A DNA stretch of 64,000 bases, from the IMG/VR virus record IMGVR_UViG_3300045988_175722, positions 32,001 to 96,000 of that record, one strand, 5' to 3'. Positions 5,740-49,085 of this stretch are shown here, in pieces. Position 1 is the first letter of the stretch; each line of letters begins with the position of its first letter. Below the pieces are notes generated by a model that did no database searches, was not told the DNA's origin, and was given only the letters and a program-made list of their open reading frames with translations. The position numbers were made by a program, and so were the translations under genes. This DNA is from a virus.

Positions 5740-6441
5740 ATGGATCAAGGAGTAATCAATTTTGATAAGATATTCCCAAAGAATGATAGCGATGAACCTA
5801 TTGTAGTAGTTTCTACCTTTTATGGTGATGAATACACCGATAGGTCAGCCTACCTAAAGTTCAATAATGCCATCATGCGTATGGGTGAACCCAGGGATGT
5901 GGATCATACAGAAACAGATGTGGAGTTCGTTACTCGTAATGAGGCGGGTAGTCTTTATGCCGTGGTATATCATTATCGGGATGGTAGTGTAGATTCCGAT
6001 ATGTTGGTTAAGGCGAAAATTGGAGGTTGGATGTTCCATCGTTTCAAGTTGCGCTTCCATCCTAATTTCGTGAGTGCCTATATCCCGTCGATATACGGTT
6101 ACAAGCGACTCACAGAACCGCAGATAGCACAAGAGTTGGCTCAGGTTCCTGCGTTTCCAACCAAGATGGCAACGATAGAAGATTATGTTTTTGCACTGTT
6201 CCCTGGAGGTATAATGATTGCGAAGTGTGCCATCAATAATGAGAATGAAGCAACTTCCATTGAAGCGATAGATTTTGTTCCTTACGAATCTTTTGCGCGA
6301 GATGAAATCAGGTATTTTTATCAGCGATTACTCCATCGCTATATATCAATCGGAGACTTGAATGTCGATGATTTCCCCGAAGACTTGATAAGGAAAGTTC
6401 TGGAGAATAGTCTTAAAAAAAATGAAAAAGAAATATGGTAA
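5740..6441 (+). CDS. hypothetical protein
   Basis: 233-aa ORF with start context TAGCGTATG. Confidence 0.6.
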   Translation: MDQGVINFDKIFPKNDSDEPIVVVSTFYGDEYTDRSAYLKFNNAIMRMGEPRDVDHTETDVEFVTRNEAGSLYAVVYHYRDGSVDSDMLVKAKIGGWMFHRFKLRFHPNFVSAYIPSIYGYKRLTEPQIAQELAQVPAFPTKMATIEDYVFALFPGGIMIAKCAINNENEATSIEAIDFVPYESFARDEIRYFYQRLLHRYISIGDLNVDDFPEDLIRKVLENSLKKNEKEIW

Positions 6442-20908: not shown

Positions 20909-20950
20909 CCCGTTAGGCGTTCCTGCGGATTTGAAATCCGCAGACATGCC
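20909..20950. repeat. single iteron + palindrome unit (cluster Z)
   Basis: CCCGTTAGGCGTTCC-TGCGGATTTGAAATCCGCA, the same unit as in clusters X and Y. It lies between terL and the upstream minus-strand gene. Confidence 0.8.
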
Positions 20951-21588: not shown

Positions 21589-22359
21589 TTAAAATAGGCT
21601 AGGCTGCGCCATTTCGAGCTGAATACGCTTGCAAGCCTTGTCGTAATATTCTTTGTTCAGCTCAAAGCCGATGAAGTTCCTCTTTTCTCTGATGCAGGCG
21701 ATTGCGGTAGTTCCGCTGCCCATGCAATTATCGAGAACGCACCCCCCCACATTAGTATAAGTACATATAAGATACTGGATAAGAGCTACTGGCTTTTGCG
21801 TAGGGTGGAAGGTATCGGCAGAATGTTCTTTATCAAAGCAGATAATGCTCTTTGGGAATTTTTCATCTGATACGATAGTAGGCACTTCTTTATGGTCTCC
21901 ATAACAGCCTCGCTTCAAACTATGCGAGCCATCTCCCCTTCGATGATTCCTTTGATGTGGCGCACATTTTACCATTTGAGGATTGTAGACAGGTTGTTTT
22001 CGATAAAATACAGCAATATCCTCATGTGAGCGCAGAGGCATCTTGTTGGCATTCAGAAAGCCTGTTACCCGTTGTTTGCTCCAAATAAGATTATATTTCC
22101 AGAGTTTCGGCTGCGACATCATAAGTTGTGCGGTAAACATACCTTGGCAGAAAAGGATAATGGCTGCATTGGGTTTGGTTATGCGCAGATATTCCTTCCA
22201 TAATGGCTCAAGCGGGATAATGCTATCCCAGCCACCGCCCTCACTCTTTTTATTGAGAACGCCATACGGCAAATCGCAGATAATGCAATCCACGCTTGCG
22301 TCCGGAATCTTTTTCATTCCTACCAGGCAATCCTCATTATAAATCTTATTTAATTCCAT
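21589..22359 (-). CDS. DNA methyltransferase, beta class (N6-adenine or N4-cytosine)
   Basis: Motif IV-like VDCIICDLPYG near the N-terminus. HPTQKP and motif I VLDNCMGSGTTAIA near the C-terminus. It contains an in-frame G7 tract (coding GG). Confidence 0.9.
   Translation of the reverse strand: MELNKIYNEDCLVGMKKIPDASVDCIICDLPYGVLNKKSEGGGWDSIIPLEPLWKEYLRITKPNAAIILFCQGMFTAQLMMSQPKLWKYNLIWSKQRVTGFLNANKMPLRSHEDIAVFYRKQPVYNPQMVKCAPHQRNHRRGDGSHSLKRGCYGDHKEVPTIVSDEKFPKSIICFDKEHSADTFHPTQKPVALIQYLICTYTNVGGCVLDNCMGSGTTAIACIREKRNFIGFELNKEYYDKACKRIQLEMAQPSLF
21742..21748. repeat. C7 homopolymer (G7 on the coding strand), in frame
   Basis: Inside beta-class MTase ORF 21589-22359, coding the GG just before motif I. 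Confidence 0.95.
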
Positions 22360-22379: not shown

Positions 22380-22977
22380 TCAATTAAACCATTTTAGAAT
22401 AGTTTCTCCTTTATATCCTTTTTCCCAGATAAACCAGGCATAGGCTTGAGCGCTACCAGCCATTGCATCGAAATCGCCATTGGCAGCACATTTCAGTCGT
22501 GAACTGCTTACCCATACTCTGCATGGAGGCTGTGTTCTAAACAGATGCCTTCTTCCTTTCCCTTCAAGAAAAGTAAGTTTTAGAAACATAGCAACCTTTC
22601 TTCCTTTCGGAATAATCTGCAAAGCCTTTTCCACGAACTCTAACGCAAATCGGTATGGTGGATTGGTAACAATATCTCCATTCCATTCTATGTTGTCGAT
22701 GGAAAGAAAATCTGCAACATCACCATAACCTCTATCTATCAAGTCACGGCTGACTACATCGTAGCCATGAGCCTTTAACACTTTGCTAATATGTCCTTCG
22801 CCGCAGGAAGGTTCCAAAATTACCCCCCCCCGTAAAATGCTCTATCTTACAGAGCCATTCGGTAGCTGCGGGTTCTGTGGCATAGTAGTCTTCTTTTTGG
22901 CGCTCACCATTTTTGTGATTGCTAGCGCCCAAAGTCTTAAACACGGCAGCCTTGCCGCCTACCCAGTCTTTTGCCAT
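22380..22977 (-). CDS. N6-adenine DNA methyltransferase, reading frame broken at a G9 tract (C9 on the plus strand)
   Basis: The two track ORFs (22786-22977 and 22380-22817) join as ...KIEHFTGGVILEPSCGEGHISK...DIVTNPPY... if the tract at 22823-22831 is 8 nt. Motif I (ILEPSCGEG) and motif IV (NPPY) are present. Confidence 0.8.
22823..22831. repeat. C9 homopolymer (G9 on the coding strand), breaks the frame
   Basis: Separates the two halves of the NPPY MTase. In frame at 8 nt. Confidence 0.95.
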
Positions 22978-26201: not shown

Positions 26202-29200
26202 ATGGCAAAGAATAAAACAGAGGCTATCATCACGCTCAATGGCCAGCAACCGCTCCAGGTACTGAAGCAGTTGCAGGAGGCTGCAGCGGGTATATCCGAG
26301 CAGATAGATGCGGCTCAGGCGAAGCTGAAAAACCTGAAGCCGAACACTGATCCATATAAAACGCTCGATGCCACCATCAAGGATTTGAAGAAGCAGTATG
26401 ATTTGCTGGCTTCTGCACAGATTAAGGATATAGCTGCCAATGAACGTTTGCAGAGTGTAGTGGACCAGCTTAGTAATACTTCTCTCCGCAATCTGCGCCG
26501 TGCATTGGGCGATGGCAAGCGTCAGCTCGAAGGTTTGTCGGAGGCAGAGCTGGAGCAGGCTAATTCCATCCGTGCGATGATGAAGGAAGTAGGCGATGAG
26601 ATACGTCTGCTCGAAGGTAAGTATGTGAAGATTAAAGAAGGATTGAAGGATGTTGATGAGCAATCCGACCAATGGCTCAGTAAGGCTCTTACTCAGCAGA
26701 GAGAACTCGTTTCCTCTTTAAAAAAAACCGATGCCAGCTATCAGTCTAATCTTGACACATTGAAACAACTGGAGGCGGAGGAGGATAGGCGCAAAGGCAA
26801 GATGAGTGTTTGGGAGGCTACTGGCATCGTTAACAGAAAGCACGCATCTGCATCTGATTTGCGCAGGGCAAAGACAACCCTCACGGAAGCTAGGGATAAT
26901 ACTGATTTATCTGATGAGAATAAGATTAATTCTTATAACGAAAGCCTTGCTACCATCGAAAAGCGTCTGGAGGCGGTTTCCGGTAAAGCTCAGAAGGCTT
27001 CTATGGATTCTATTACGCTCTTAAAAATTCTGAGTAACCCTAACGGACATCCTGCAGAAGATATTAAGGCGGCAATGGATGCTATTCAAAAGCAGATTCA
27101 AAAGTTGCCTGTAGGCTCACAGGAGGTGGCAAAACTCCGTCAGCAGTATGCTATGTTGGAGAAAGCCCTGAAAGGTACCTATCTTTCGCATAGTCAGCTT
27201 AATGATGTTATCGAGAGAGGAAGAAGGGGGAAAGCTTCTATCAATGAGTTGAAACAGGCTTACAATCAGCTTTCCGAAGAGTTGAATCAGTTAAACACCA
27301 AAAGCAAGGAGTTTAACGAGAAACAAAAAGAGCTGAAGGATTTAAAAAAGAATATCGATAATGCTACCGGGTCAATAAGCCAGCAAAGTAAATCCTGGCA
27401 GACGGCAGTGAAGAACCTTACGGCATACGTGGGTCTCTTCCAGGTCTTCAATGCTATCAAAGATACAGTTACTTCTGCTATCAAGAAAAACTTTGAATAT
27501 TCTTCGTCTTTGACGGATATTCGCAAGGTGTCCGGACTCACGATGCAGGATGTCAATAAACTGTCTGAGGAATTGGCTAAGATTGATACTCGTACTTCTG
27601 TTGATGGTTTGGCTCAACTTGCCTACCAGGGTGCAAAACTTGGTATGGGTAAGTATGGCGTGGAAGGTATGAAGCAGTTCGTAGCTGCTGCAGACCAAAT
27701 CAATGTAGCAATCGGTGAGGAGATGGGAGAGGAAGCGCTGCCGGCTCTGTCTAAGATGGTGGAGACGATGGGGCTTATCCCGAAGATGGGTATTGAAAAA
27801 GCGATGCTTGCTACGGGTTCGGCTATGTTCAAACTGTCTTCTACCTCTACATCTACATCTACTAATATCGTAGAGTTTGCCAAGCGATTAACCGGTGTGA
27901 GCCGTACTGCAGGTATCACTACCGACCAGTTGTTGGCTCTCGGTTCTGCATCCGATTCTCTCTTCCTGATGCCGGAGGTGAGTGCCACGGCGATGTCTAA
28001 GTTCATCGTAGCTTTGCAGAAGAATCATAACCTTATCGAGAAGGATTTGGGCATTCAGCAGGGTACTATCAAGAATATGTATGCCGCTGGCCATGCCATG
28101 GATGCCATCGTTCTTGTATTGGAGAAGATGCGTGACAAGGGCAACATGAATGCTCTTGGTGAAATCTTTAAAGACCTTGGTTCTGACGGACAAAGACTTA
28201 TTACTTCTATGGTAACTATGTCTAAGAACGTGGACGTACTGAAGGATCATCTCTATGAGTCTAAGGAGGCATTCGAGGAGGCAAGCGCTGTAACCAATGA
28301 GTACAAAATGCAGCAGCAGTCTGCTGCAGGTATATTGGATAGAGCCAACAACCTTTGGGAGAAGGCATTTGTCAACCCTGATGGCGTGGAGAGTGTAAAG
28401 GCTATGGCACAGGCTTGGTACGATATGTCGCAGATGATCTTGCAAAGTCCGGTGTTCAAGAATACGCTTCAGGCAGCCCTGTGGAGCGTGATAACTGCTT
28501 GCAAGGTATTTATAACCCTTCTTCCTCTTATCGCCAACTATTTCGCTGCTCTGGGTATTTACAAAACCGTTTCGTTTCTTTGGGAATTAGGCAAGGCTTT
28601 AAAAGCTGCAGCAGCTGCGCAAACGTTGTTTAATTCAGCAGCCAAGGTAAATCCTTATGTAGCTATTGCAAGTGCGATTCTTACCGCCGTAGGAGTGGTA
28701 TGGTCTTTTGCGGAAGCGAATAGAGAAGCTGCTGCTGCGGAAGCAGAGGCAACACGTAAAGCTAATTCCTGGAAAAAAACACTTAACGAGGCGGCAGTAG
28801 AAACGAGTAACCTTAACAAGAAACTCGATAATTATAAGCGAATGATGAATGAGGCGAACCTTTCGCAAAAGGAACGCCAAGGTCTCGTATCCAGATTCAA
28901 TCGGGATTTCCGCTCTTATATTGCTAATCTCGGTATAGAGATAAAGAATGTAAAAGACCTTCGTGACCATTATTCAGAGTTGGCACAGGAAGCGCAGAGG
29001 GCAACTTATTACCGTATGCGTGAGAAAGCCAAACAGCAGGCTTTGCCGAAATTTGATTCCGACAGAAACGCAGCTTCAAACGTTTTGATGGAAAAGGTTC
29101 GTGGTTTAGGTCTTGATAAGCTTGGAGTGTCTTTTCAGGATATAGACCGATGGGTCAGCAAGGGTGCAAGCGGTACCTCCGTGTTCTGGTACTTAGCTAA

Positions 29201-33366: not shown

Positions 33367-34485
33367 ATGTTTGAGGAGATATGTTCCGTCTATCGGGATG
33401 CGAAGGATGCACTCGGAAGATATGTCGATATGGAGACGGGCGAGTGCATCACGCAGATGTCTATCCGTGAGTTCTGCCTGACGGACAGATGGAAGCCGTA
33501 TGTAGAGAAGCTGAGAGCCATGAGGCAACAGTATGGCAGTGCAGCTAAGAAGATGCCGGAATACGTAGATACCAAGAAGATGCTTCCTGGTGCCACGCTG
33601 AGCGGTCTCTTCGCTACCTACGAGGACAATAGTCTTACTCATCCAGGCCAGCGGGTGATGGTTTCCCGAAGAGAAAGCCACCTTCAACGGCATACAGGAT
33701 GGTTGGCAATAGATATTGACCTGCAAGACAACCAAGGTATAGCCGATTTCGAGAATATCCGCAGGGTATTGGCATTTCGCCCCGAGGTAGCCCTGCTGAT
33801 GCGTTCCTGTTCCGGAACGGGATTGTTCGGATTGGTTCGCTTGGCTTACCCTGACCATCACAAAGAGCAGTTCAAGGCATTACTGCAGGAGTATGCTGCC
33901 CTGGGCATTATGCTTGATGGCTCTTGTGGAAATATCGGTCGTGTGCGCTTCGCCTCATGGGATGATCCGCAGCATATATATATTAATGAACGTGCGATAC
34001 CATACACCAGACTACCCGATAATGTGCCTACGCCGATGCCCGTGATGCAGTATGGCAACACGTTTTTCAGTGGCAGCCATCCGACAGGTGCCCGCTTTGG
34101 CGGAAACTATTCGCATGGTGGATATAGGTGTGACACTCCCGAGATCACCTATCACAAAGCGCTGCGCCTTGTTGAGAAGATAGAGGCACAAGGCATTGAT
34201 ATTTGCGCAGGCAAGGATGCTAATAGTGGCTATCTGGGTTGGGTGAAATGCGGCATGTCGCTCTATCACGTGGATCGCGTGGCAGGCTATGACCTGTGGC
34301 GAAGAGTTTCCCGCTTCCGTCCTGCTGATTCCACCTGCGGCCACAACGAGATGGATTTTCGCAAGCGATGGAATCAGTTTGCTAATTACAACAAAATCTC
34401 TGAGGCAACTTTCTTCGACTACTGCAAGCGGTCGGGCATCATCCTCACCAAGGAAGACTGGAAAGAGATATACCAGAATACATAA
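33367..34485 (+). CDS. primase-like protein (BT4734/VirE-type N-terminal domain with PriCT-like C-terminal region)
   Basis: WLAIDIDL...LLMRSCSGTGLFGLVRL...GNIGRVRFASWD resembles the Bacteroides-type primase/VirE N-terminal domain. It is adjacent to the iteron-rich region. Confidence 0.6.
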   Translation: MFEEICSVYRDAKDALGRYVDMETGECITQMSIREFCLTDRWKPYVEKLRAMRQQYGSAAKKMPEYVDTKKMLPGATLSGLFATYEDNSLTHPGQRVMVSRRESHLQRHTGWLAIDIDLQDNQGIADFENIRRVLAFRPEVALLMRSCSGTGLFGLVRLAYPDHHKEQFKALLQEYAALGIMLDGSCGNIGRVRFASWDDPQHIYINERAIPYTRLPDNVPTPMPVMQYGNTFFSGSHPTGARFGGNYSHGGYRCDTPEITYHKALRLVEKIEAQGIDICAGKDANSGYLGWVKCGMSLYHVDRVAGYDLWRRVSRFRPADSTCGHNEMDFRKRWNQFANYNKISEATFFDYCKRSGIILTKEDWKEIYQNT

Positions 34486-34562: not shown

Positions 34563-34849
34563 ATGGCAAAAAGAAAAGTAGAAATCCCTAAAGGGTCATG
34601 GCTTGACCAGAAAGGTCAACGTTGGGTAAAAGTAGTGTTCGATGTAATGTCCGGATTCGGGGGGGCAAAAAGTTCCTTCGTCAAATCACAATGACGTTCC
34701 CGGCAAATCTCGATATGGCTTTAGGCAAATACTTAATAGATATGGGCGATATGGATGATTTCAGAGACAGAATAAATCATCAATACCCATCATTGGAACA
34801 CCTTAAAAATCTCACCTTTATCCCTACGGGAGACAAGGTTTTGAGATAG
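34563..34849 (+). CDS. hypothetical protein, reading frame broken at a G7 tract
   Basis: The ATG at 34563 reads MAKRKVEIPKGSWLDQKGQRWVKVVFDVMSGFGG and then stops. With 8 G at 34659-34665 it continues as ...GKKFLRQITMTFPANLDM... (track ORF 34622-34849), giving 95 aa. Confidence 0.5.
34659..34665. repeat. G7 homopolymer, breaks the frame
   Basis: Inside ORF 34563-34849. In frame at 8 nt. Confidence 0.95.
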
Positions 34850-44186: not shown

Positions 44187-45293
44187 ATGGAAGCAAAGAT
44201 AAACCTCACCATCCCGAAAAGCTGGAATCAATGCACCCCCACCCAGCTAGAGCAGATTGCCCTCATCATGCTAGAGCAGATAGAGAAATCCAAGGTAGAC
44301 CGCTATCACCCCTTCGATATGCAGAAGGTGAAGATAGCTGTCTTCTTTCTCTTTGCCGGGATAAGCATCAACGCCTATCCCGACCCTCGCCAGCCTATCA
44401 ATGAGCAGCACTACCTGGTAAGCATAGAGCCGCAGAAGAAGAGCCTCCTAAAGAAGCTCTTCTCCCTCTGCGCCTCCGTTCCCAGCGATTCCATCGCTGG
44501 TCCCCAGTCTTGCAGCCACTTCCCTCTCTATCTTTGGCAGCTCAACTATTGGCTTTCCCCGAAAGCCAAAACCAACGATAAAACCTCCCCCGAGTATATC
44601 TCCCAAGGCGCAGGTCTCCTCGATTGGCTGGATGCGGATAGCGGCAATTTTCTCACCCTTTTTCCCTATCCATCCATCAAGCAGAAATCCAAGTGGTACC
44701 ATCGCAGCAAAGCCTTCCAGGGTCCGCACCCAGACCTCGATGGTTTCTCCTGGCAGCAGTACCGCTTCGCCAGCGATATGATGCAAACCTACACCAAGTT
44801 AAACAATAACCTGGTTAAGATGAAGAAGATGGATAAATTCACCGAGGCGCAGTTGCATCAGCAAGCCGAGAGTGTGCGTAGTGCAAAAAGCATGTTCTTA
44901 GCCGTCATCTTTAACACCACTACGAATTACATCGACTCTACCACTGGCATAAAGAAATACGATTTCCACTATGAGGCAAAACAGCTCACTGCCCATGCCA
45001 AGTATTTCGTCGATTTCTCCGAAGCCCAGTGGCAAGTAGTTTTATTCTGGTGGACGGGCATCATGCACACCCTGGCTCATCGCTACCCTCATGTGTTCAA
45101 GGTGCAGAAGGTAAACAACAGTAAGCCACAAACTCCGATGGAAATCTACACCGCTACCACCGCCACGATGCAGAAGTATGCCGGCTTAACAGAAGATCAG
45201 ATCAACACCCAATCCTATTCCTTGGTTCTAGAACACTTAGAAAGGTTATCGAAAGAGAATGAGGAAATGGAAAAGATGAGGAGAAGCAAATGA
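44187..45293 (+). CDS. hypothetical protein
   Basis: 368-aa ORF starting 1 nt after the endolysin stop. It carries an in-frame hairpin motif copy (...ASVPSDSIAGP...). Confidence 0.6.
   Translation: MEAKINLTIPKSWNQCTPTQLEQIALIMLEQIEKSKVDRYHPFDMQKVKIAVFFLFAGISINAYPDPRQPINEQHYLVSIEPQKKSLLKKLFSLCASVPSDSIAGPQSCSHFPLYLWQLNYWLSPKAKTNDKTSPEYISQGAGLLDWLDADSGNFLTLFPYPSIKQKSKWYHRSKAFQGPHPDLDGFSWQQYRFASDMMQTYTKLNNNLVKMKKMDKFTEAQLHQQAESVRSAKSMFLAVIFNTTTNYIDSTTGIKKYDFHYEAKQLTAHAKYFVDFSEAQWQVVLFWWTGIMHTLAHRYPHVFKVQKVNNSKPQTPMEIYTATTATMQKYAGLTEDQINTQSYSLVLEHLERLSKENEEMEKMRRSK
44470..44503 (+). repeat. 32-nt hairpin motif, copy 11 (intragenic)
   Basis: GCGCCTCCGTTCCCAGCGATTCCATCGCTGGTCC inside ORF 44187-45293, in frame. 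Confidence 0.85.
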
Positions 45294-45436
45294 TAAAGAT
45301 AGATTATCATTTTCCGAATACGGGGGGGGTATTCACTCAATGTACAAAGGATTTCAATAATGGCCCCTTATGGAATTTGAGCCGTTGCGTCAAGGCAAGC
45401 GTTCTCGATACAGGCGTAATGCTAGAATATGAATAA
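45290..45436 (+). CDS. TRD-like minigene M0 (48 aa)
   Basis: ATGA overlap with the previous stop. MIKIDYHFPNTGGVFTQC...VLDTGVMLEYE, with a G8 tract in frame and the LEYE-stop tail shared with the downstream array. Confidence 0.45.
   Translation: MIKIDYHFPNTGGVFTQCTKDFNNGPLWNLSRCVKASVLDTGVMLEYE
45322..45329. repeat. G8 homopolymer, in frame
   Basis: In minigene M0, context AATAC-G8. Confidence 0.95.
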
Positions 45437-45557
45437 CCATCGCTTTTACCAATACCCACGAGGCGAGAATATGGGCGGTATTCTAGATACATCACTCTGC
45501 CTTACCATCACTATTAATTCGTAGGAACAGAATGTGTTTCTAATAGAGGAATTATAA
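45429..45557 (+). pseudogene. TRD-like minigene M0b, interrupted by an in-frame TAG
   Basis: MNNHRFYQYPRGENMGGILDTSLCLTITINS-TAG-EQNVFLIEEL. The ATG is embedded in the EYE-stop of M0. Confidence 0.3.
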
Positions 45558-45563
45558 AGATTT

Positions 45564-45872
45564 ATGAGTTATAGTACATTAAAAATAGAGAAGAATAAAT
45601 TCAGAGAACACTCTGTATTTTTATCCCGTTCAACCGTAAGTGATACGGTTGTAATCAAGTGTGGTTCAGAAAGCGTGTGTCTTGAGCAAGACGAATTTAA
45701 AGCGCTGGCACATCTCATGTGCTATGATTTCTATACACGAGGTATGATCGAGAAAGCTCAAGAACATAGCCGGAATGATGTTCGTCCATACGATATATAT
45801 TCTACTACCGATATAGAAGGTTACGACGAGAAGATTAATTGGGATTTGGATGTAGAAAATAACAACAAATAG
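45564..45872 (+). CDS. hypothetical protein
   Basis: 102-aa ORF between the minigenes and the MTase core. Confidence 0.5.
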   Translation: MSYSTLKIEKNKFREHSVFLSRSTVSDTVVIKCGSESVCLEQDEFKALAHLMCYDFYTRGMIEKAQEHSRNDVRPYDIYSTTDIEGYDEKINWDLDVENNNK

Positions 45873-45932
45873 CATTTCCAAAGAACAAGAGAATTCATTG
45901 AGTATGATTAAAGATTTATAGAGCAAAACAAA

Positions 45933-47234
45933 ATGATAACAAAATTCAATTTTAAGGATAAGACCATCAAGTCTTATGCCATCCGAAAGCTGACACCTTT
46001 CGAGTGTTTCCGACTGATGGGTGTTCGTGATAATGTGATACAAACCATGCAGAGCACCAATGCCCAGGCAGCCGAACGCATCGCCAACTACAAGGGCAAG
46101 GGCAAACCTGAAGATATGGCAGTATCAGCCAGTCAGCAATACAAGCAGGCGGGTAACTCCATCGTGGTAGATGTGCTTGCAGCCATCTATCAGCAACTCT
46201 GGTACCAGAAAGAACCAAAGCGTGAGGCACAGACCTCCCTCTTTGCCGATTTCTTCCCAGAAGACCAACTCCCTACCTATCCGGTAGATAAGAACGATGA
46301 TGAGAAACTTATTCTTACCACCTTCTCCGGTTACGACTCGCAGTTGATGGCAGCCGATGTGCTCGCCCAGCAGCATCCTGATTTCCGCTGGACGTGCGTA
46401 GGCTGGAGCGATATAGATAAGTATGCCTGTCAGATGCACGACCTTATCTTTCCGCAGTTTTCCGACAAAGCCTTGGGCGATATAACCAAAATCGACTGGC
46501 AACAGGTAAAATCTAATACGGGGGGGCAAGAAATTGACCTCTTTACCTATTCTTCACCTTGTCAGGATATATCGCAAGCCGGCAAGCAGATGGGTCTGAA
46601 GGAAGGTTCCGATACCCGCTCTGCATTATTGTGGCGAGTAGTCGATGCCGTAGAGGTATTGCGGCCTAAATACCTGCTCCAAGAGAACGTAGCAGCCCTG
46701 GTAAGCAAGAAGTTTATGCCCGATTTTCAGAAGTGGCTTGATAAGCTCTCTTCTCTTGGCTACGTAAGCCGATGGGCACGCCTCAATGCCAAAGACTATG
46801 GTGTTCCGCAGAACCGCGACCGAGTTTTCTGCCTCTCAATGAGAAAAGATGTAGCCTTCGATTACCAGTTTCCCGACCCTATTCCGCTGAAGAGAAAGTT
46901 GGAAGATGTGTTGCAGGAAGAAGTAGATACAAGGTTCTTCTTGAAAGATGAATCCGTCAGCAAGTTCCTCCAGGCAAACGATAAAGACACCTGTGTCTTC
47001 CATCAGTTTGAGATAGAGCCGAGCCACGAGAATGCCATGGCATTGAAAGCCATCCTTACCCTTTTCGTAGAGCAGTATGATTGCTGGAACCGCAAGCCTA
47101 AGAGAATGCAGGAGCTACTTGTTTCTTCTCACGAGGATATTATCATGCCATTATTCAATGATTGGAAAGAGAACGGCAAGTTCCAAAATCCAAAGTTAGA
47201 TAGTTTGTACCATCAGTTTTTGGAGAAGAAATGA
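45933..47234 (+). CDS. DNA (cytosine-5) methyltransferase core, circularly permuted (motifs IX-X precede I-VIII), with no recognisable TRD
   Basis: Motif order is IRKLTPFECFRLMG (IX), YKQAGNSIVVDV (X), TFSGYDS (I), YSSPCQDIS (IV), LLQENV (VI), GVPQNRDRVF (VIII). A G7 tract at 46520-46526 is in frame. Confidence 0.9.
   Translation: MITKFNFKDKTIKSYAIRKLTPFECFRLMGVRDNVIQTMQSTNAQAAERIANYKGKGKPEDMAVSASQQYKQAGNSIVVDVLAAIYQQLWYQKEPKREAQTSLFADFFPEDQLPTYPVDKNDDEKLILTTFSGYDSQLMAADVLAQQHPDFRWTCVGWSDIDKYACQMHDLIFPQFSDKALGDITKIDWQQVKSNTGGQEIDLFTYSSPCQDISQAGKQMGLKEGSDTRSALLWRVVDAVEVLRPKYLLQENVAALVSKKFMPDFQKWLDKLSSLGYVSRWARLNAKDYGVPQNRDRVFCLSMRKDVAFDYQFPDPIPLKRKLEDVLQEEVDTRFFLKDESVSKFLQANDKDTCVFHQFEIEPSHENAMALKAILTLFVEQYDCWNRKPKRMQELLVSSHEDIIMPLFNDWKENGKFQNPKLDSLYHQFLEKK
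46520..46526. repeat. G7 homopolymer, in frame
   Basis: In the C5-MTase core just before motif IV, context AATAC-G7. Confidence 0.95.
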
Positions 47235-47420
47235 TTTGCAGTTTAACCCATGTTGCGAAGCCTTCGCCTATGATTAGGGGGGGGGTATCAGCAGGTAGTA
47301 AACGTAACAGACGGAGAAAGCGCAGCCACCTTAACAACTCGCTATGAGTCGATAGGTCCTACCAACATTTTAACGCTTGCGCATTACCCTATGACAGTAG
47401 TGTTATATGAATACGAATAA
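47231..47420 (+). CDS. TRD-like minigene T1 (frame broken at G9; intact at G8)
   Basis: ATGA overlap with the core stop. With 8 G it reads MICSLTHVAKPSPMIRGGYQQVVNVTDGESAATLTTRYESIGPTNILTLAHYPMTVVLYEYE. Confidence 0.45.
47277..47285. repeat. G9 homopolymer, breaks the frame
   Basis: In minigene T1. In frame at 8 nt. Confidence 0.95.
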
Positions 47421-47558
47421 TACGATAGACAAAATAGGCAACATTTACTTTAATGAATGGAAGCCCGGTTTTGATGGTAATATCTGTGGCGTGAAAGGTA
47501 TATACCCTACCATTACTCTATCCAACAATACGGGGGGGTACTGTTAGAGTATGCTTAA
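47407..47558 (+). CDS. TRD-like minigene T2 (frame broken at G7; intact at G8)
   Basis: ...GVKGIYPTITLSNNTGG followed by VLLEYA-stop if the tract has 8 G. As sequenced it stops after GGYC. Confidence 0.45.
47532..47538. repeat. G7 homopolymer, breaks the frame
   Basis: In minigene T2, context AATAC-G7. In frame at 8 nt. Confidence 0.95.
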
Positions 47559-47718
47559 AAAGAACGCACGTCTGGAGCGTATGTATCAGCGCGGTTTCCG
47601 TCCACATCACGCCATGTGGATCGATACCTATAATAAGCAATATGGCAAAGATATTATCTATACTGTTTTAGCTGGTATCAGTAGTAGAAACCATTATTAC
47701 GTAGCAGTAGAACTATGA
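47551..47718 (+). CDS. TRD-like minigene T3 (55 aa, intact)
   Basis: MLKKNARLERMYQRGF...IIYTVLAGISSRNHYYVAVEL. Start and stop overlap the neighbouring minigenes. Confidence 0.4.
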   Translation: MLKKNARLERMYQRGFRPHHAMWIDTYNKQYGKDIIYTVLAGISSRNHYYVAVEL

Positions 47719-47863
47719 ATAGTAATCGCCCGATCATCCTCGGCTCTTATAGCCCATCCCAAAACGGCATTATCGTTCACCCTAAAGGTATCGCCCTATG
47801 CCTTTGTGGGGGGGCAAAGGGCATGATGTAGATAAACCGAAAATATTATTAGAGTATGAATAA
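47715..47863 (+). CDS. TRD-like minigene T4 (frame broken at G7; intact at G8)
   Basis: ...IVHPKGIALCLCGGGKGHDVDKPKILLEYE with 8 G. Confidence 0.45.
47808..47814. repeat. G7 homopolymer, breaks the frame
   Basis: In minigene T4. In frame at 8 nt. Confidence 0.95.
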
Positions 47864-48007
47864 GGTTATTCCTTTCGTAAAACGATTTAAGGAGCTATGC
47901 CCACGATTAGATGGTTACTCTACAGCCTTGTCATCAAGGTACGATGGATGGGGGGGCTGTACGACAACCACGGGCAGCATACTATGTTATTGTTAGTATA
48001 TGATTAA
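47856..48007 (+). CDS. TRD-like minigene T5 (frame broken at G7; intact at G8)
   Basis: MNKVIPFVKRFKELCPRLDGYSTALSSRYDGWGGLYDNHGQHTMLLLVYD with 8 G. Confidence 0.4.
47950..47956. repeat. G7 homopolymer, breaks the frame
   Basis: In minigene T5. In frame at 8 nt. Confidence 0.95.
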
Positions 48008-48144
48008 ATTGATAACAATCAATACCCCCCCCCATAATCTGTGGTGCTATCACTGCTCATTATTTTAAGGATGGGGTATCGAATATCCTTCCAAATACAA
48101 ACTCGCAGATAAAGGCTGCGGCAATATTAGCAGAGTATGAATAA
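48000..48144 (+). CDS. TRD-like minigene T6 (frame broken at C9; intact at C8)
   Basis: MIKLITINTPPIICGAITAHYFKDGVSNILPNTNSQIKAAAILAEYE with 8 C. Confidence 0.4.
48025..48033. repeat. C9 homopolymer, breaks the frame
   Basis: In minigene T6, context AATAC-C9. In frame at 8 nt. Confidence 0.95.
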
Positions 48145-48238
48145 GGTTATAATAGATAAAGGTAGCATTCCTCCTTCTGAAGAGAAAGAGGATGATTCTA
48201 ATGATATGCCGCCATTCGTATTGATAGAATATGATTAA
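48137..48238 (+). CDS. minigene T7 (33 aa, intact; tail motif only)
   Basis: MNKVIIDKGSIPPSEEKEDDSNDMPPFVLIEYD. It shares its first 20 nt with T5 and has the xLIEYD tail but no TRD-like core. Confidence 0.35.
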   Translation: MNKVIIDKGSIPPSEEKEDDSNDMPPFVLIEYD

Positions 48239-48407
48239 GATATTAGCCATTCACGAGGCAAGAACAGAGCACGCCAAGGAAGTACGCAAGCAGACTGGTA
48301 CCAACGATTATCGGGATAAAGCCGTCTTCTTCCGTGATAGTCCTTTGATGCAGTGCATCGGTACTTTCTCCACAAAGGATAATCTTCTTGCCTTCAGATA
48401 TGAATAA
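48231..48407 (+). CDS. TRD-like minigene T8 (58 aa, intact)
   Basis: IHEARTEHAKEVRKQTGTNDYRDKAVFFRDSPLMQCIGTFSTKDNLLAFRYE, of the RTExAK...TKDNLL flavour seen in many C5-MTase variable regions. Confidence 0.5.
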   Translation: MIKILAIHEARTEHAKEVRKQTGTNDYRDKAVFFRDSPLMQCIGTFSTKDNLLAFRYE

Positions 48408-48416
48408 AGAAAAGTT

Positions 48417-48581
48417 ATGAACGAAATACATCCGATAGTAGTAGGCTTGCTGAATACGCCTCCCTTTGACAAGCGCTTCGCCCAGATAAGGCGAGTGTTC
48501 GCTATCCAAGGTCTAGCGCCTACTTGCGATACTTGTGGGGGGGGCGGTACTCAGCCCAAGATACTGGTGGAGTATGATTAG
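48417..48581 (+). CDS. TRD-like minigene T9 (54 aa, intact, G8 in frame)
   Basis: ...RRVFAIQGLAPTCDTCGGGGTQPKILVEYD, a close match to the RxY..G..PTL....GGG...I pattern found before motif IX in C5-MTases. Confidence 0.5.
   Translation: MNEIHPIVVGLLNTPPFDKRFAQIRRVFAIQGLAPTCDTCGGGGTQPKILVEYD
48537..48544. repeat. G8 homopolymer, in frame
   Basis: In minigene T9, coding GGGG. Confidence 0.95.
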
Positions 48582-48756
48582 GCAAGCCATCATTACCCAC
48601 TATCGAACCGAAGAAGCGAAGGCATATCGCAAGATACACGGCGACAGAGGCGGTTGCCGTTATCAGGATAAGTATCATCGCCCAAGTCCCTACCCCTGGA
48701 GTAACTGCATTTCCACCGTAACAAAAGATAATCTTTTATGGCAACAATACGAATAA
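48574..48756 (+). CDS. TRD-like minigene T10 (60 aa, intact)
   Basis: MIRQAIITHYRTEEAKAYRKIHGDRGGCRYQDKYHRPSPYPWSNCISTVTKDNLLWQQYE (C-terminal part of track ORF 48535-48756). Confidence 0.5.
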   Translation: MIRQAIITHYRTEEAKAYRKIHGDRGGCRYQDKYHRPSPYPWSNCISTVTKDNLLWQQYE

Positions 48757-48896
48757 GAACCTGCGCAAGCAGAGGCAGAGCCGATGGTGATTGGTACTAC
48801 AACCCTCACTCCCAAAGGTTAGAAATTGGGGGAAGCATCAGTAATGCCATCTCCTCCATCGCTAAGGATTTTATGATTATCATTGAACACCGCTAG
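48738..48896 (+). CDS. TRD-like minigene T11 (52 aa, intact)
   Basis: MATIRIRTCASRGRADGDWYYNPHSQRLEIGGSISNAISSIAKDFMIIIEHR. It overlaps T10 by 19 nt, and its stop lies in the first iteron of palindrome cluster X. Confidence 0.4.
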   Translation: MATIRIRTCASRGRADGDWYYNPHSQRLEIGGSISNAISSIAKDFMIIIEHR

Positions 48897-49085
48897 GCGC
48901 TCGGCGGATTTGAAATCCGCCGTTAAAAAATGTCCTAACCTTTTTAGGCTCTGCGGATTTGAAATCCGCAGCAAGCAAGATTGTATCAAAGAATAGGGGG
49001 ATTACAGATCCCCCAGTTTAATAGGTCGAACCTTTTTTGACGGTGGATTTCAAATCCGCCGGAACGCCTAACGGAAGACTTTGTC
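48891..49085. repeat. composite palindrome cluster X (four GC-stem palindromes flanked by one iteron on each side)
   Basis: CGCTAGGCGCTC, GGCGGATTTGAAATCCGCC, TGCGGATTTGAAATCCGCA, GGGGGATTACAGATCCCCC, GGTGGATTTCAAATCCGCC, GGAACGCCTAACGGAAGAC. It is the reverse complement of the core of cluster Y. Confidence 0.85.

Follow-up and report, generated by a model that had tools for sequence, protein, structure and literature searches.

A proposed modular C5-cytosine methyltransferase with polyG-gated recognition-domain minigenes in an uncultured gut phage

The genome of an uncultured gut phage holds, around a gene for a C5-cytosine DNA methyltransferase, an array of very short genes whose reading frames are repeatedly interrupted, and could be repaired, at runs of guanine or cytosine. 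The array lies in a 64-kb window (the whole stretch of DNA that was analysed, to which all coordinates refer) within a 104,194-bp metagenomic scaffold (ENA ERZ28576153, sample SAMEA4545385; contig L081 in what follows). At its centre stands the methyltransferase, a protein of 433 amino acids (aa) to which we refer as the core, and on either side of it are about 13 minigenes, M0, M1 and T1 to T11, all on the + strand and encoding peptides of 33 to 62 aa. Here we describe the core, the minigenes and the G/C runs of at least 7 nucleotides (nt) that they contain, compare the lengths of these runs among related genomes, and weigh what the arrangement may mean for methylation of the phage genome.

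The core (45933..47234, + strand) is matched by PF00145 with an E-value of 1.7e-50, in two stretches. Read from the sequence, its motif order is circularly permuted: RKLTPFECFRLMGV and YKQAGNSIVV, which represent motifs IX and X, stand first and are followed by motifs I to VIII, among them LTTFSGYDS (I), SSPCQD (IV), ENV (VI) and QNRDR (VIII), and the two Pfam stretches merge into one once the canonical order is restored. Motifs I to X are all found on this one chain, only the variable domain being separate, and the catalytic motifs are not divided between two polypeptides in the manner of two-subunit C5 enzymes. The order IX-X-I-VIII is that of the permuted enzymes known as type H, but the fused N-terminal recognition domain of that type is absent; the protein starts at MITKFNFKDKTIKSYAIRKLTP, with 17 residues ahead of motif IX, and itself carries no recognition domain. 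In an AlphaFold model, for which M.HhaI is the top Foldseek match, the C-terminus forms a helical extension of ~80 aa with a predicted local distance difference test score (pLDDT) of 82-95. Relatives abound in gut metagenomes: a full-length core is kept in 133 viral contigs, and 7,934 proteins match it at E<=1e-20. One public assembly contains a protein of 482 aa (P0091) in which a frameshift near the C-terminus of the core joins it to a T4-type recognition domain, a rare covalent fusion of core and domain whose order is opposite to that of the natural fused relatives.

Eight G/C runs lie between 45322 and 48544, seven of them in minigenes and one in the core, at the coordinates that the initial annotation of this DNA had assigned to them. 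Three-frame translation places three of these runs in frame, again as annotated: the G8 of M0 (45290..45436; 48 aa with the tail MLEYE; run at 45322-45329; family 10, with 33 members), the G7 of the core (46520..46526, + strand, read as NTGGQ) and the G8 of T9 (48417..48581; 54 aa; run at 48537-48544). We call such alleles ON and those in which the run breaks the frame OFF. The remaining five are OFF as read, namely T1 (47231..47420; G9 at 47277-47285), T2 (47407..47558; G7 at 47532-47538), T4 (47715..47863; G7 at 47808-47814), T5 (47856..48007; G7 at 47950-47956) and T6 (48000..48144; C9 at 48025-48033). Editing of the tracts to a length of 8, by removal of one base in T1 and T6 and addition of one in T2, T4 and T5, restores an uninterrupted peptide in every case (62, 50, 49, 50 and 47 aa for T1, T2, T4, T5 and T6, with the tails LYEYE, LLEYA, ILLEYE, LLLVYD and ILAEYE), and the tract is the sole lesion in each.

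Across the whole window there are exactly 11 runs of this length, and only two of exactly six: C7 at 21742, C9 at 22823, G7 at 34659, G8 at 45322, G7 at 46520, G9 at 47277, G7 at 47532, 47808 and 47950, C9 at 48025 and G8 at 48537. All 11 are located in open reading frames (ORFs); seven break the frame as read, and a one-base change repairs each of those seven. The earlier count of 11 tracts was therefore right, whereas the accompanying statement that nine belong to methyltransferase-related ORFs is one short, the number being ten: the eight described above, that of a DPPY-type methyltransferase (21742) and that of an NPPY-type methyltransferase (22823). This pattern is not due to chance. The heptamer GGGGGGG has 19 overlapping matches in a window whose G+C content is 46%, an approximately fourfold enrichment over dinucleotide shuffles (4.64 +/- 2.58, with 0 of 100 shuffles reaching 19). 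Furthermore, GGG is the rarest glycine codon (48 of 929, or 5.2%, in 48 long ORFs), and in the same ORFs GGG-GGG writes just 2 of 62 Gly-Gly pairs, both of them in-frame methyltransferase tracts. Over-representation of runs that are built from a rare codon requires selection for the runs themselves. Runs of 5 to 11 G or C across 80 related loci number 439, 76, 84, 73, 26, 3 and 2, a bimodal spectrum with a peak at 7-8, while A/T runs at the same 80 loci decay smoothly with length. Four tracts share an AATAC context (repeat family D3, together with 48020-48033), as had been noticed before. In 31 of 53 orthologous tract groups (58%) the G run is directly followed by TA, a figure that is 10% for runs of G3-5 at the same loci; TAA or TAG at this position is an immediate stop in one OFF frame, but TAT and TAC are equally common.

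Interspersed with the tract-bearing minigenes are others without a long run. T3 (47551..47718; 55 aa, tail VAVEL) is tract-less and locked in the ON state, with TATGGCAAAGAT where its relatives have G7-9, and T11 (48738..48896; 52 aa) is likewise a locked allele, with G5 where relatives have G7-9 at ...LEIGGG.... No tract is present in T7 (48137..48238; tail LIEYD; family 16, 18 members), which at 33 aa is too short for a full recognition domain, in T8 (48231..48407; 58 aa; RTEHAK...TKDNLL type, family 2) or in T10 (48574..48756; 60 aa; RTEEAK...SNCISTVTKDNLL type). M1 (45429..45524; family 3, 56 members) is dead for another reason, a TGG to TAG nonsense change: its relatives read MNNHRFYQYPRGENKGGILNTDLCPTITINAWESNVFLIKKYE and the window reads ...TITINS*EQNVFLIEEL*, with asterisks for stops. 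Its tail also differs from that of 56 intact relatives, and it is an ordinary pseudogene amid switchable cassettes. Readthrough of TAG was suggested by this sequence and by K*HFQRTREFIEYD* upstream of the core; it was rejected, since relatives have TGG at the M1 site and the TAA, TAG and TGA codons of the junctions between minigenes are real stops. Altogether 768 minigenes were catalogued across 81 loci and fall into about 21 families of at least eight members, which have little in common beyond a short N-terminal strand and a tail that is either hydrophobic-EY(D/E) or VEL.

The minigenes are packed end to end, each start overlapping the preceding stop by 4, 8 or 19 nt or sitting a few bases after it. 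A junction of the form ...TATT(A/G)nTAGA(G/A)TATGA(A/T)TAA recurs between them and brings TAG, TGA and TAA, in three different frames, together with the next ATG (for example AATATTATTAGAGTATGAATAA, 47842..47863, + strand; repeat families D1 and D2). A stop in each of the three frames is present within 18 nt at 49% of 721 minigene ends but at 10.5% of long-ORF ends, and the out-of-frame reading of both T2 and T5 terminates 3 nt ahead of the following ATG. We infer that these junctions couple termination to reinitiation whatever the frame of the upstream cassette; with stops in all frames beside the next ATG, the state of one minigene would not disturb translation of the next, and the cassettes could thus act as independent switches. 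Similar overlaps, of the ATGA type or longer, join a 368-aa ORF (44187-45293), M0 and M1, and then the core and T1 to T11. These two runs of overlapping genes are parted by a gap of ~400 nt (45525-45932) that holds a 102-aa ORF, and by its layout the region between the endolysin gene and a 613-aa ORF looks like a single translationally coupled operon. As a means of shuffling cassettes, site-specific recombination at the repeated junction was considered and set aside, since direct repeats would give deletion only and no gene for a recombinase was seen beside the array, although no dedicated search was made.

Among related phages, the tracts change length by at least one base far faster than point substitutions accumulate, and such a change shifts a minigene in or out of frame, the usual ON length being 8. 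Orthologous tracts were defined as groups with matching 14+14-nt flanks and near-identical genomes as lineages that share an identical core protein, an all-against-all BLAST census of insertions and deletions having proved too noisy at 96-98% identity. Contig L082 comes from a sister sample (SAMEA4545384) of the same study and was produced by the same pipeline as L081. Its core is identical and there are 0 substitutions over 5.9 kb, but T1 is G9 in L081 and G8 in L082 (where the 62-aa gene is called), and T2 and T4 are both G7 in the former and G8 in the latter, while the G8 of M0 and the G7 of the core are the same in both. Tract lengths aside, the only difference in the 5.9 kb is a 17-bp deletion in L082 (ATGGAAGCCCGGTTTTG, window ~47457-47473), flanked by ATGG microhomology, that truncates T2. 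Tract changes were also found in three of four further identical-core lineages: two changes (one of them G12 vs G7) with 1 substitution in the P0020 lineage, two with 6 substitutions in the P0088 lineage, and one tract with three alleles (G8, G9 and G11) beside a constant core G7 and ~98 substitutions, mostly in two blocks, in the P0039 lineage. The two contigs of the fourth, P0048, show 0 tract changes and 0 substitutions.

On the broader scale of flank-matched groups, minigene tracts span lengths of 6-12 and nearly every group has several lengths. Length heterozygosity averages 0.66 in the G/C tract groups, compared with 0.40 in A/T runs and 0.09 in the G7 of the core, which is found in 21 of the 22 genomes of its group; a flank substitution keeps the sole G8 (contig L022) in frame. 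In other contigs the T4 tract, between exactly matching flanks, is present as G7, G8, G9 and the interrupted in-frame form GGGGGTGG, and tracts orthologous to that of T5 have lengths of 6, 7 and 9. All three post-tract frames are represented among T9-family proteins in public data. In most orthologous groups the ON length is 8 (or 5 or 11), and it is so in different codon phases (AGG GGG GGG, ACG GGG GGG G and TGT GGG GGG GG), which points to selection on run length itself. The initial annotation had held that every broken frame is restored at exactly 8; this is correct for the five broken minigenes of the window but fails as a family-wide rule, since the core, the DPPY methyltransferase and about five minigene families are ON at 7. 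The first two of these, with their shorter and less mutable run, are almost always in frame among relatives.

Such length changes are likely to arise by slipped-strand mispairing during phage replication, and the proposal that the tracts are slipped-strand contingency loci was favoured over artefact or decay by every sequence-based test possible. Of the competing explanations, neutral decay fares best. In that case the array would be a graveyard of redundant cassettes, the runs mutational hot spots, and their states free to drift with no adaptive role. Tract-bearing minigenes are indeed in frame in 54 of 144 cases (37%), near the one third expected without selection on state, and no particular state is therefore generally favoured; some cassettes, moreover, are killed by ordinary lesions (the nonsense codon of M1 and the 17-bp deletion in T2 of L082), and cassette content varies widely between relatives. 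In OFF alleles, however, the sequence beyond the tract is open and under purifying selection. When this segment is read in the ON frame, pairs of OFF alleles have a ratio of nonsynonymous to synonymous polymorphism (pN/pS) of 0.37 and pairs of ON alleles one of 0.30, with values of 0.05-0.25 in families 1, 4, 5, 6, 8 and 13; selection therefore still preserves alleles that are out of frame in the consensus. Decay also sits poorly with the single lesion in each of the five broken cassettes of the window, with the excess of runs made of the rarest glycine codon, with the convergence of ON length on 8 in differing codon phases and with the appearance of a new tract in the NPPY methyltransferase, and we judge it unlikely.

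Less probable again, and in our view very unlikely, is that the variation stems from homopolymer miscalling or assembly, such that every minigene tract is truly 8 and the G7, G9 and C9 alleles are consensus errors. Two features of the data are those which errors of this kind would produce: length 8 repairs each broken frame of the window, and L082 has G8 at all four of the minigene tracts seen in it. Against this, the G7 of the core is constant in the flank-matched genomes carrying it apart from the lone G8 that a substitution accounts for, and L081 and L082, though of one study and one pipeline, differ in tract length at minigenes only. Off-lengths recur, besides, in data from numerous independent studies and assemblers (Hadza, PRJNA217052, IMG/VR and Logan), and tracts of 10-12, in-frame G5 alleles and families that are ON at 7 do not fit a true length of 8. 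Runs of A8 inside ORFs had been adduced as a further argument, and they do leave their frames unbroken; as controls they are weak at 6415 and 8828, since these lie within 25 nt of ORF ends, and only the third, at 26720, is deep within a long ORF. Recoding at the G runs, by transcriptional slippage or ribosomal frameshifting, would let a fixed DNA length give both truncated and full-length peptides and make DNA variation secondary, and although RNA polymerase can slip at long homopolymers and purifying selection on OFF alleles would also be expected if these were expressed through slippage, the idea, which may still hold for a modifier of expression, is highly improbable as the main explanation and is not needed, given that +1 and -1 corrections are both required at different cassettes, that about one third of alleles are in frame in the DNA and others are interrupted but in frame, neither of which obligatory recoding would need, and that the DNA length polymorphism directly visible between near-identical genomes is left unexplained by it.

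What the switching controls depends on what the minigenes encode. Most decisive here is an exhaustive search with the core, which recovered single-chain circularly permuted relatives (P0164, P0175, P0189 and P0274) with 63-75 extra N-terminal residues, and it is to these residues that minigenes are related: T3 matches residues 8-54 of P0274 (35% identity over 48 aa, E=2e-6) and T10 matches residues 58-73 of P0164 (SNAITTVTKDNLLMQE; 75% identity over 16 aa, E=6e-6). In the fused proteins the domain is followed by MIAQIN..K.K...FDIRKLTPRE, and the core of the window begins at the same point, with MITKFNFKDKTIKSYAIRKLTPFE, so that MIAQIN...IRKLTP in the fused relatives stands opposite MITKFN...IRKLTP at the start of the phage core. 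This homology supports the view that the minigenes are detached recognition domains and, taken with the domain-less core, indicates a type-H permuted methyltransferase whose recognition domain has been detached and multiplied. Local alignment with shuffling also places T9 on the recognition-domain motifs of M.HhaI (QGERIYSTRGIAITLSAYGGG; z=4.3, p=0.004) and M.MpeI (VYNINGIGPTLTASGANSRIKI; p=0.012). T2 and T4 align more weakly at the same places of the two enzymes, the best M.MpeI match of T2 being in the recognition domain, and T4 in a fusion construct aligns to M.HhaI recognition-domain residues 222-257. Unlike the enzymes of the phage SPR type, the array does not carry several domains in tandem within one polypeptide; each has its own ORF, ATG and stop.

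Taken together, these observations make it probable, in our assessment, that the locus encodes a modular C5-cytosine methyltransferase, in which a permuted core lacking a recognition domain works with translationally coupled, polyG-gated recognition-domain minigenes to give a phage population of mixed specificity. The mechanism may be pictured as follows. A run of G (rarely C) at the Gly-Gly position of a domain would slip and turn its minigene ON or OFF. An in-frame domain peptide would dock non-covalently on the core by way of its conserved tail and the MITKFNFKDKTIKSY segment at the N-terminus of the core, and each docked domain would add one sequence specificity. The phage population would consequently be a mixture of methylation patterns, and this mixture would hedge between restriction enzymes that are blocked by methylation and the methylation-dependent restriction that it provokes. 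The step from minigene state to methylation specificity would follow if the minigenes are recognition domains, as their homology with fused relatives supports, and core and domain would assemble as separate proteins. Mixed tract lengths would be expected within a single population; the T9 products in all three frames among public assemblies and the difference between the two sister samples are no more than suggestive of reversibility and mixing. A more specific version, in which peptides of 45-60 aa serve as a specificity subunit comparable to HsdS, each gated by its own polyG tract and insulated by its junctions, and in which a 3-kb operon could adopt ~2^7 methylation states, seems to us as plausible as not.

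Several results weigh against this proposal. Three have been met above, namely the uniform G8 of L082, the in-frame fraction close to one third, and the cassettes lost to ordinary lesions, and the others concern the domains and their docking. Profiles built from recognition domains only had no significant match in the PDB: the T4 family profile found nothing, the T8/T10 family gave chance acetyltransferase matches only, and the top match of the T9 family was the M.MpeI recognition domain, but at E=0.54. When a minigene was inserted between motifs VIII and IX the Pfam score rose by 3-10 bits, and equally for reversed controls. A tblastn search of GenBank phages with T10 did not find a methyltransferase. 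Finally, AlphaFold modelling of T9 fused to the core gave a pLDDT of 37 from a single sequence and a mean of 59.8 from a 69-sequence alignment, with the recognition domain and the N-terminus of the core below 35.

Several components of this arrangement have precedents. Type III mod phasevarions of Haemophilus, Neisseria, Helicobacter and Moraxella, phase-variable Type I hsdS/hsdM and Type IIG genes exemplify the phase-variable methyltransferases of bacteria. In these systems slippage at a repeat in the methyltransferase or specificity gene toggles methylation of a motif and leaves the population epigenetically mixed (PMC6902483, PMC4889913, PMC7383803). The phage locus resembles them in having a homopolymer within a methyltransferase or specificity gene and differs in its carrier, a lytic-type phage genome, in the switched unit, a recognition-domain minigene of 45-62 aa instead of a whole enzyme, and in scale, a single 3-kb operon holding up to seven switches and the rest of the genome three more. 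Evasion of restriction would also be a likelier role here than the control of a regulon as in a phasevarion. Hypermutable polyG tracts have reportedly been found in the phages of Campylobacter. There, too, G runs within phage ORFs vary in length and create diversity; those tracts reportedly lie mainly in receptor-binding and other virion genes, whereas 10 of the 11 described here are in DNA methyltransferase genes, in phages of a different host group.

The use of one catalytic core for several specificities is likewise familiar from phages. Multispecific C5 methyltransferases are known from the Bacillus phages SPR, phi3T, rho11s and H2, and in them, as proposed here, one core serves several short recognition domains with one specificity each, presumably as protection from several host restriction systems. 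Their domains are arranged in tandem between motifs VIII and IX of a single polypeptide and are always expressed, in contrast to the separate ORFs, permuted core and G-run gates of the gut phage. Circular permutation of C5 methyltransferases occurs naturally in the type H enzymes M.BssHII, M.Alw26I, M2.Eco31I, M.Esp3I and M2.BsaI (Albert et al. 2018, PMC5944983). These share with the core the order IX-X-I-VIII and a break in the variable region, a layout that P0164, P0189 and P0274 have exactly, but the recognition domain of the window core would be supplied by separate genes. Division of an enzyme into two pieces is also known, from the two-subunit C5 methyltransferases M.AquI and M.EcoHK31I. 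Engineered fragment complementation has rebuilt M.SssI and M.MpeI (PMC5944983). Both cases show that separately translated pieces, with the split inside the variable region or close to it, can make up a C5 methyltransferase. In both the two-subunit and the fragment systems there is one fixed partner that carries catalytic motifs, whereas the present locus would combine a swappable specificity module, in many versions, with a complete catalytic core, a logic closer to that of the HsdS subunit of Type I systems. Contingency switching, polyG tracts in phages and multispecific, permuted and two-piece C5 methyltransferases are thus known separately; the literature searched contained no description of their combination, a permuted domain-less core together with a free-standing minigene array, individual polyG gates and three-frame-stop restart junctions.

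If the proposal is true, human-gut phages of a widespread group are equipped to generate epigenetic diversity from within their own genome; the members of the core family in public metagenomes number thousands. A single burst would hold virions with differing combinations of 5-methylcytosine (m5C) and N6-methyladenine (m6A) marks, which would help to account for the persistence of these phages among host strains that differ in restriction and methylation-dependent defences. It would also be the first natural C5 methyltransferase with a separate, exchangeable small-protein specificity module, and as such a scaffold for programmable methylation. As for annotation, pipelines at present call the cassettes unrelated hypothetical proteins of 30-60 aa or overlook them entirely, and a frameshift in a methyltransferase gene of a phage assembly is no ground for dismissing the gene as an error.

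Tract-bearing genes are also found outside the array. On the - strand, an NPPY-type DNA methyltransferase (22380..22977) is split by a G9 run (C9 on the + strand, 22823-22831) and is in frame at G8, G5 or G11; once repaired, it matches the DNA methyltransferase family phrog_799 at E=2.8e-67. Its tract occurs in relatives as G5, G6, G7, G8, G9, G11 and the interrupted in-frame form GGGGGAGG, and distant homologues have no tract, so the run arose newly within this group of phages. Beside it, also on the - strand, lies an N4/N6 (DPPY) methyltransferase (21589..22359; PF01555, E=4.3e-31) whose G7 (21742-21748, C7 on the + strand) is in frame, the ON length being 7; the same tract is G7 in 21 relatives, G8 in 3, G9 in 1 and G6 in 1. 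The one tract outside methyltransferase genes, a G7 at 34659-34665, breaks a small ORF on the + strand (34563..34849) that closely follows a primase-like gene (33367-34485; BT4734-like_N and PriCT_2 domains). At G8 this ORF gives a product of 95 aa (MAKRKVEIPKGSWLDQKGQRWVKVVFDVMSGFGGGKKFLRQITMTF...), for which Pfam and PHROG returned no match.

The scaffold is that of a tailed phage, with a head maturation protease, an endolysin, a tail-fibre-like protein and an ORF of 2,091 aa with a minor-tail/tape-measure-like domain. No cultured relative was found, since megablast of the locus against GenBank phages gave no match and the terminase is only ~30% identical to that of the nearest GenBank phage. 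The hosts are gut anaerobes, possibly Prevotella, as two related contigs were binned with Prevotella genomes, although other bins disagree.

In the gap upstream of the core, the 102-aa ORF (45564-45911, ending in TAG) takes the position that a 105-aa recognition-domain minigene (family 4) has in relatives, and is followed by the remnant of a minigene tail (HFQRTREFIEYD) and a 5-codon ORF (MIKDL) just before the core; the region looks like a cassette replacement. Downstream of the last minigene (48899-49061) are three copies of a perfect palindrome, GCGGATTT(G/C)AAATCCGC, which may be terminators or operator sites, and a fourth copy lies at ~20925-20945 on the other strand, near the 5' end of the terminase gene.

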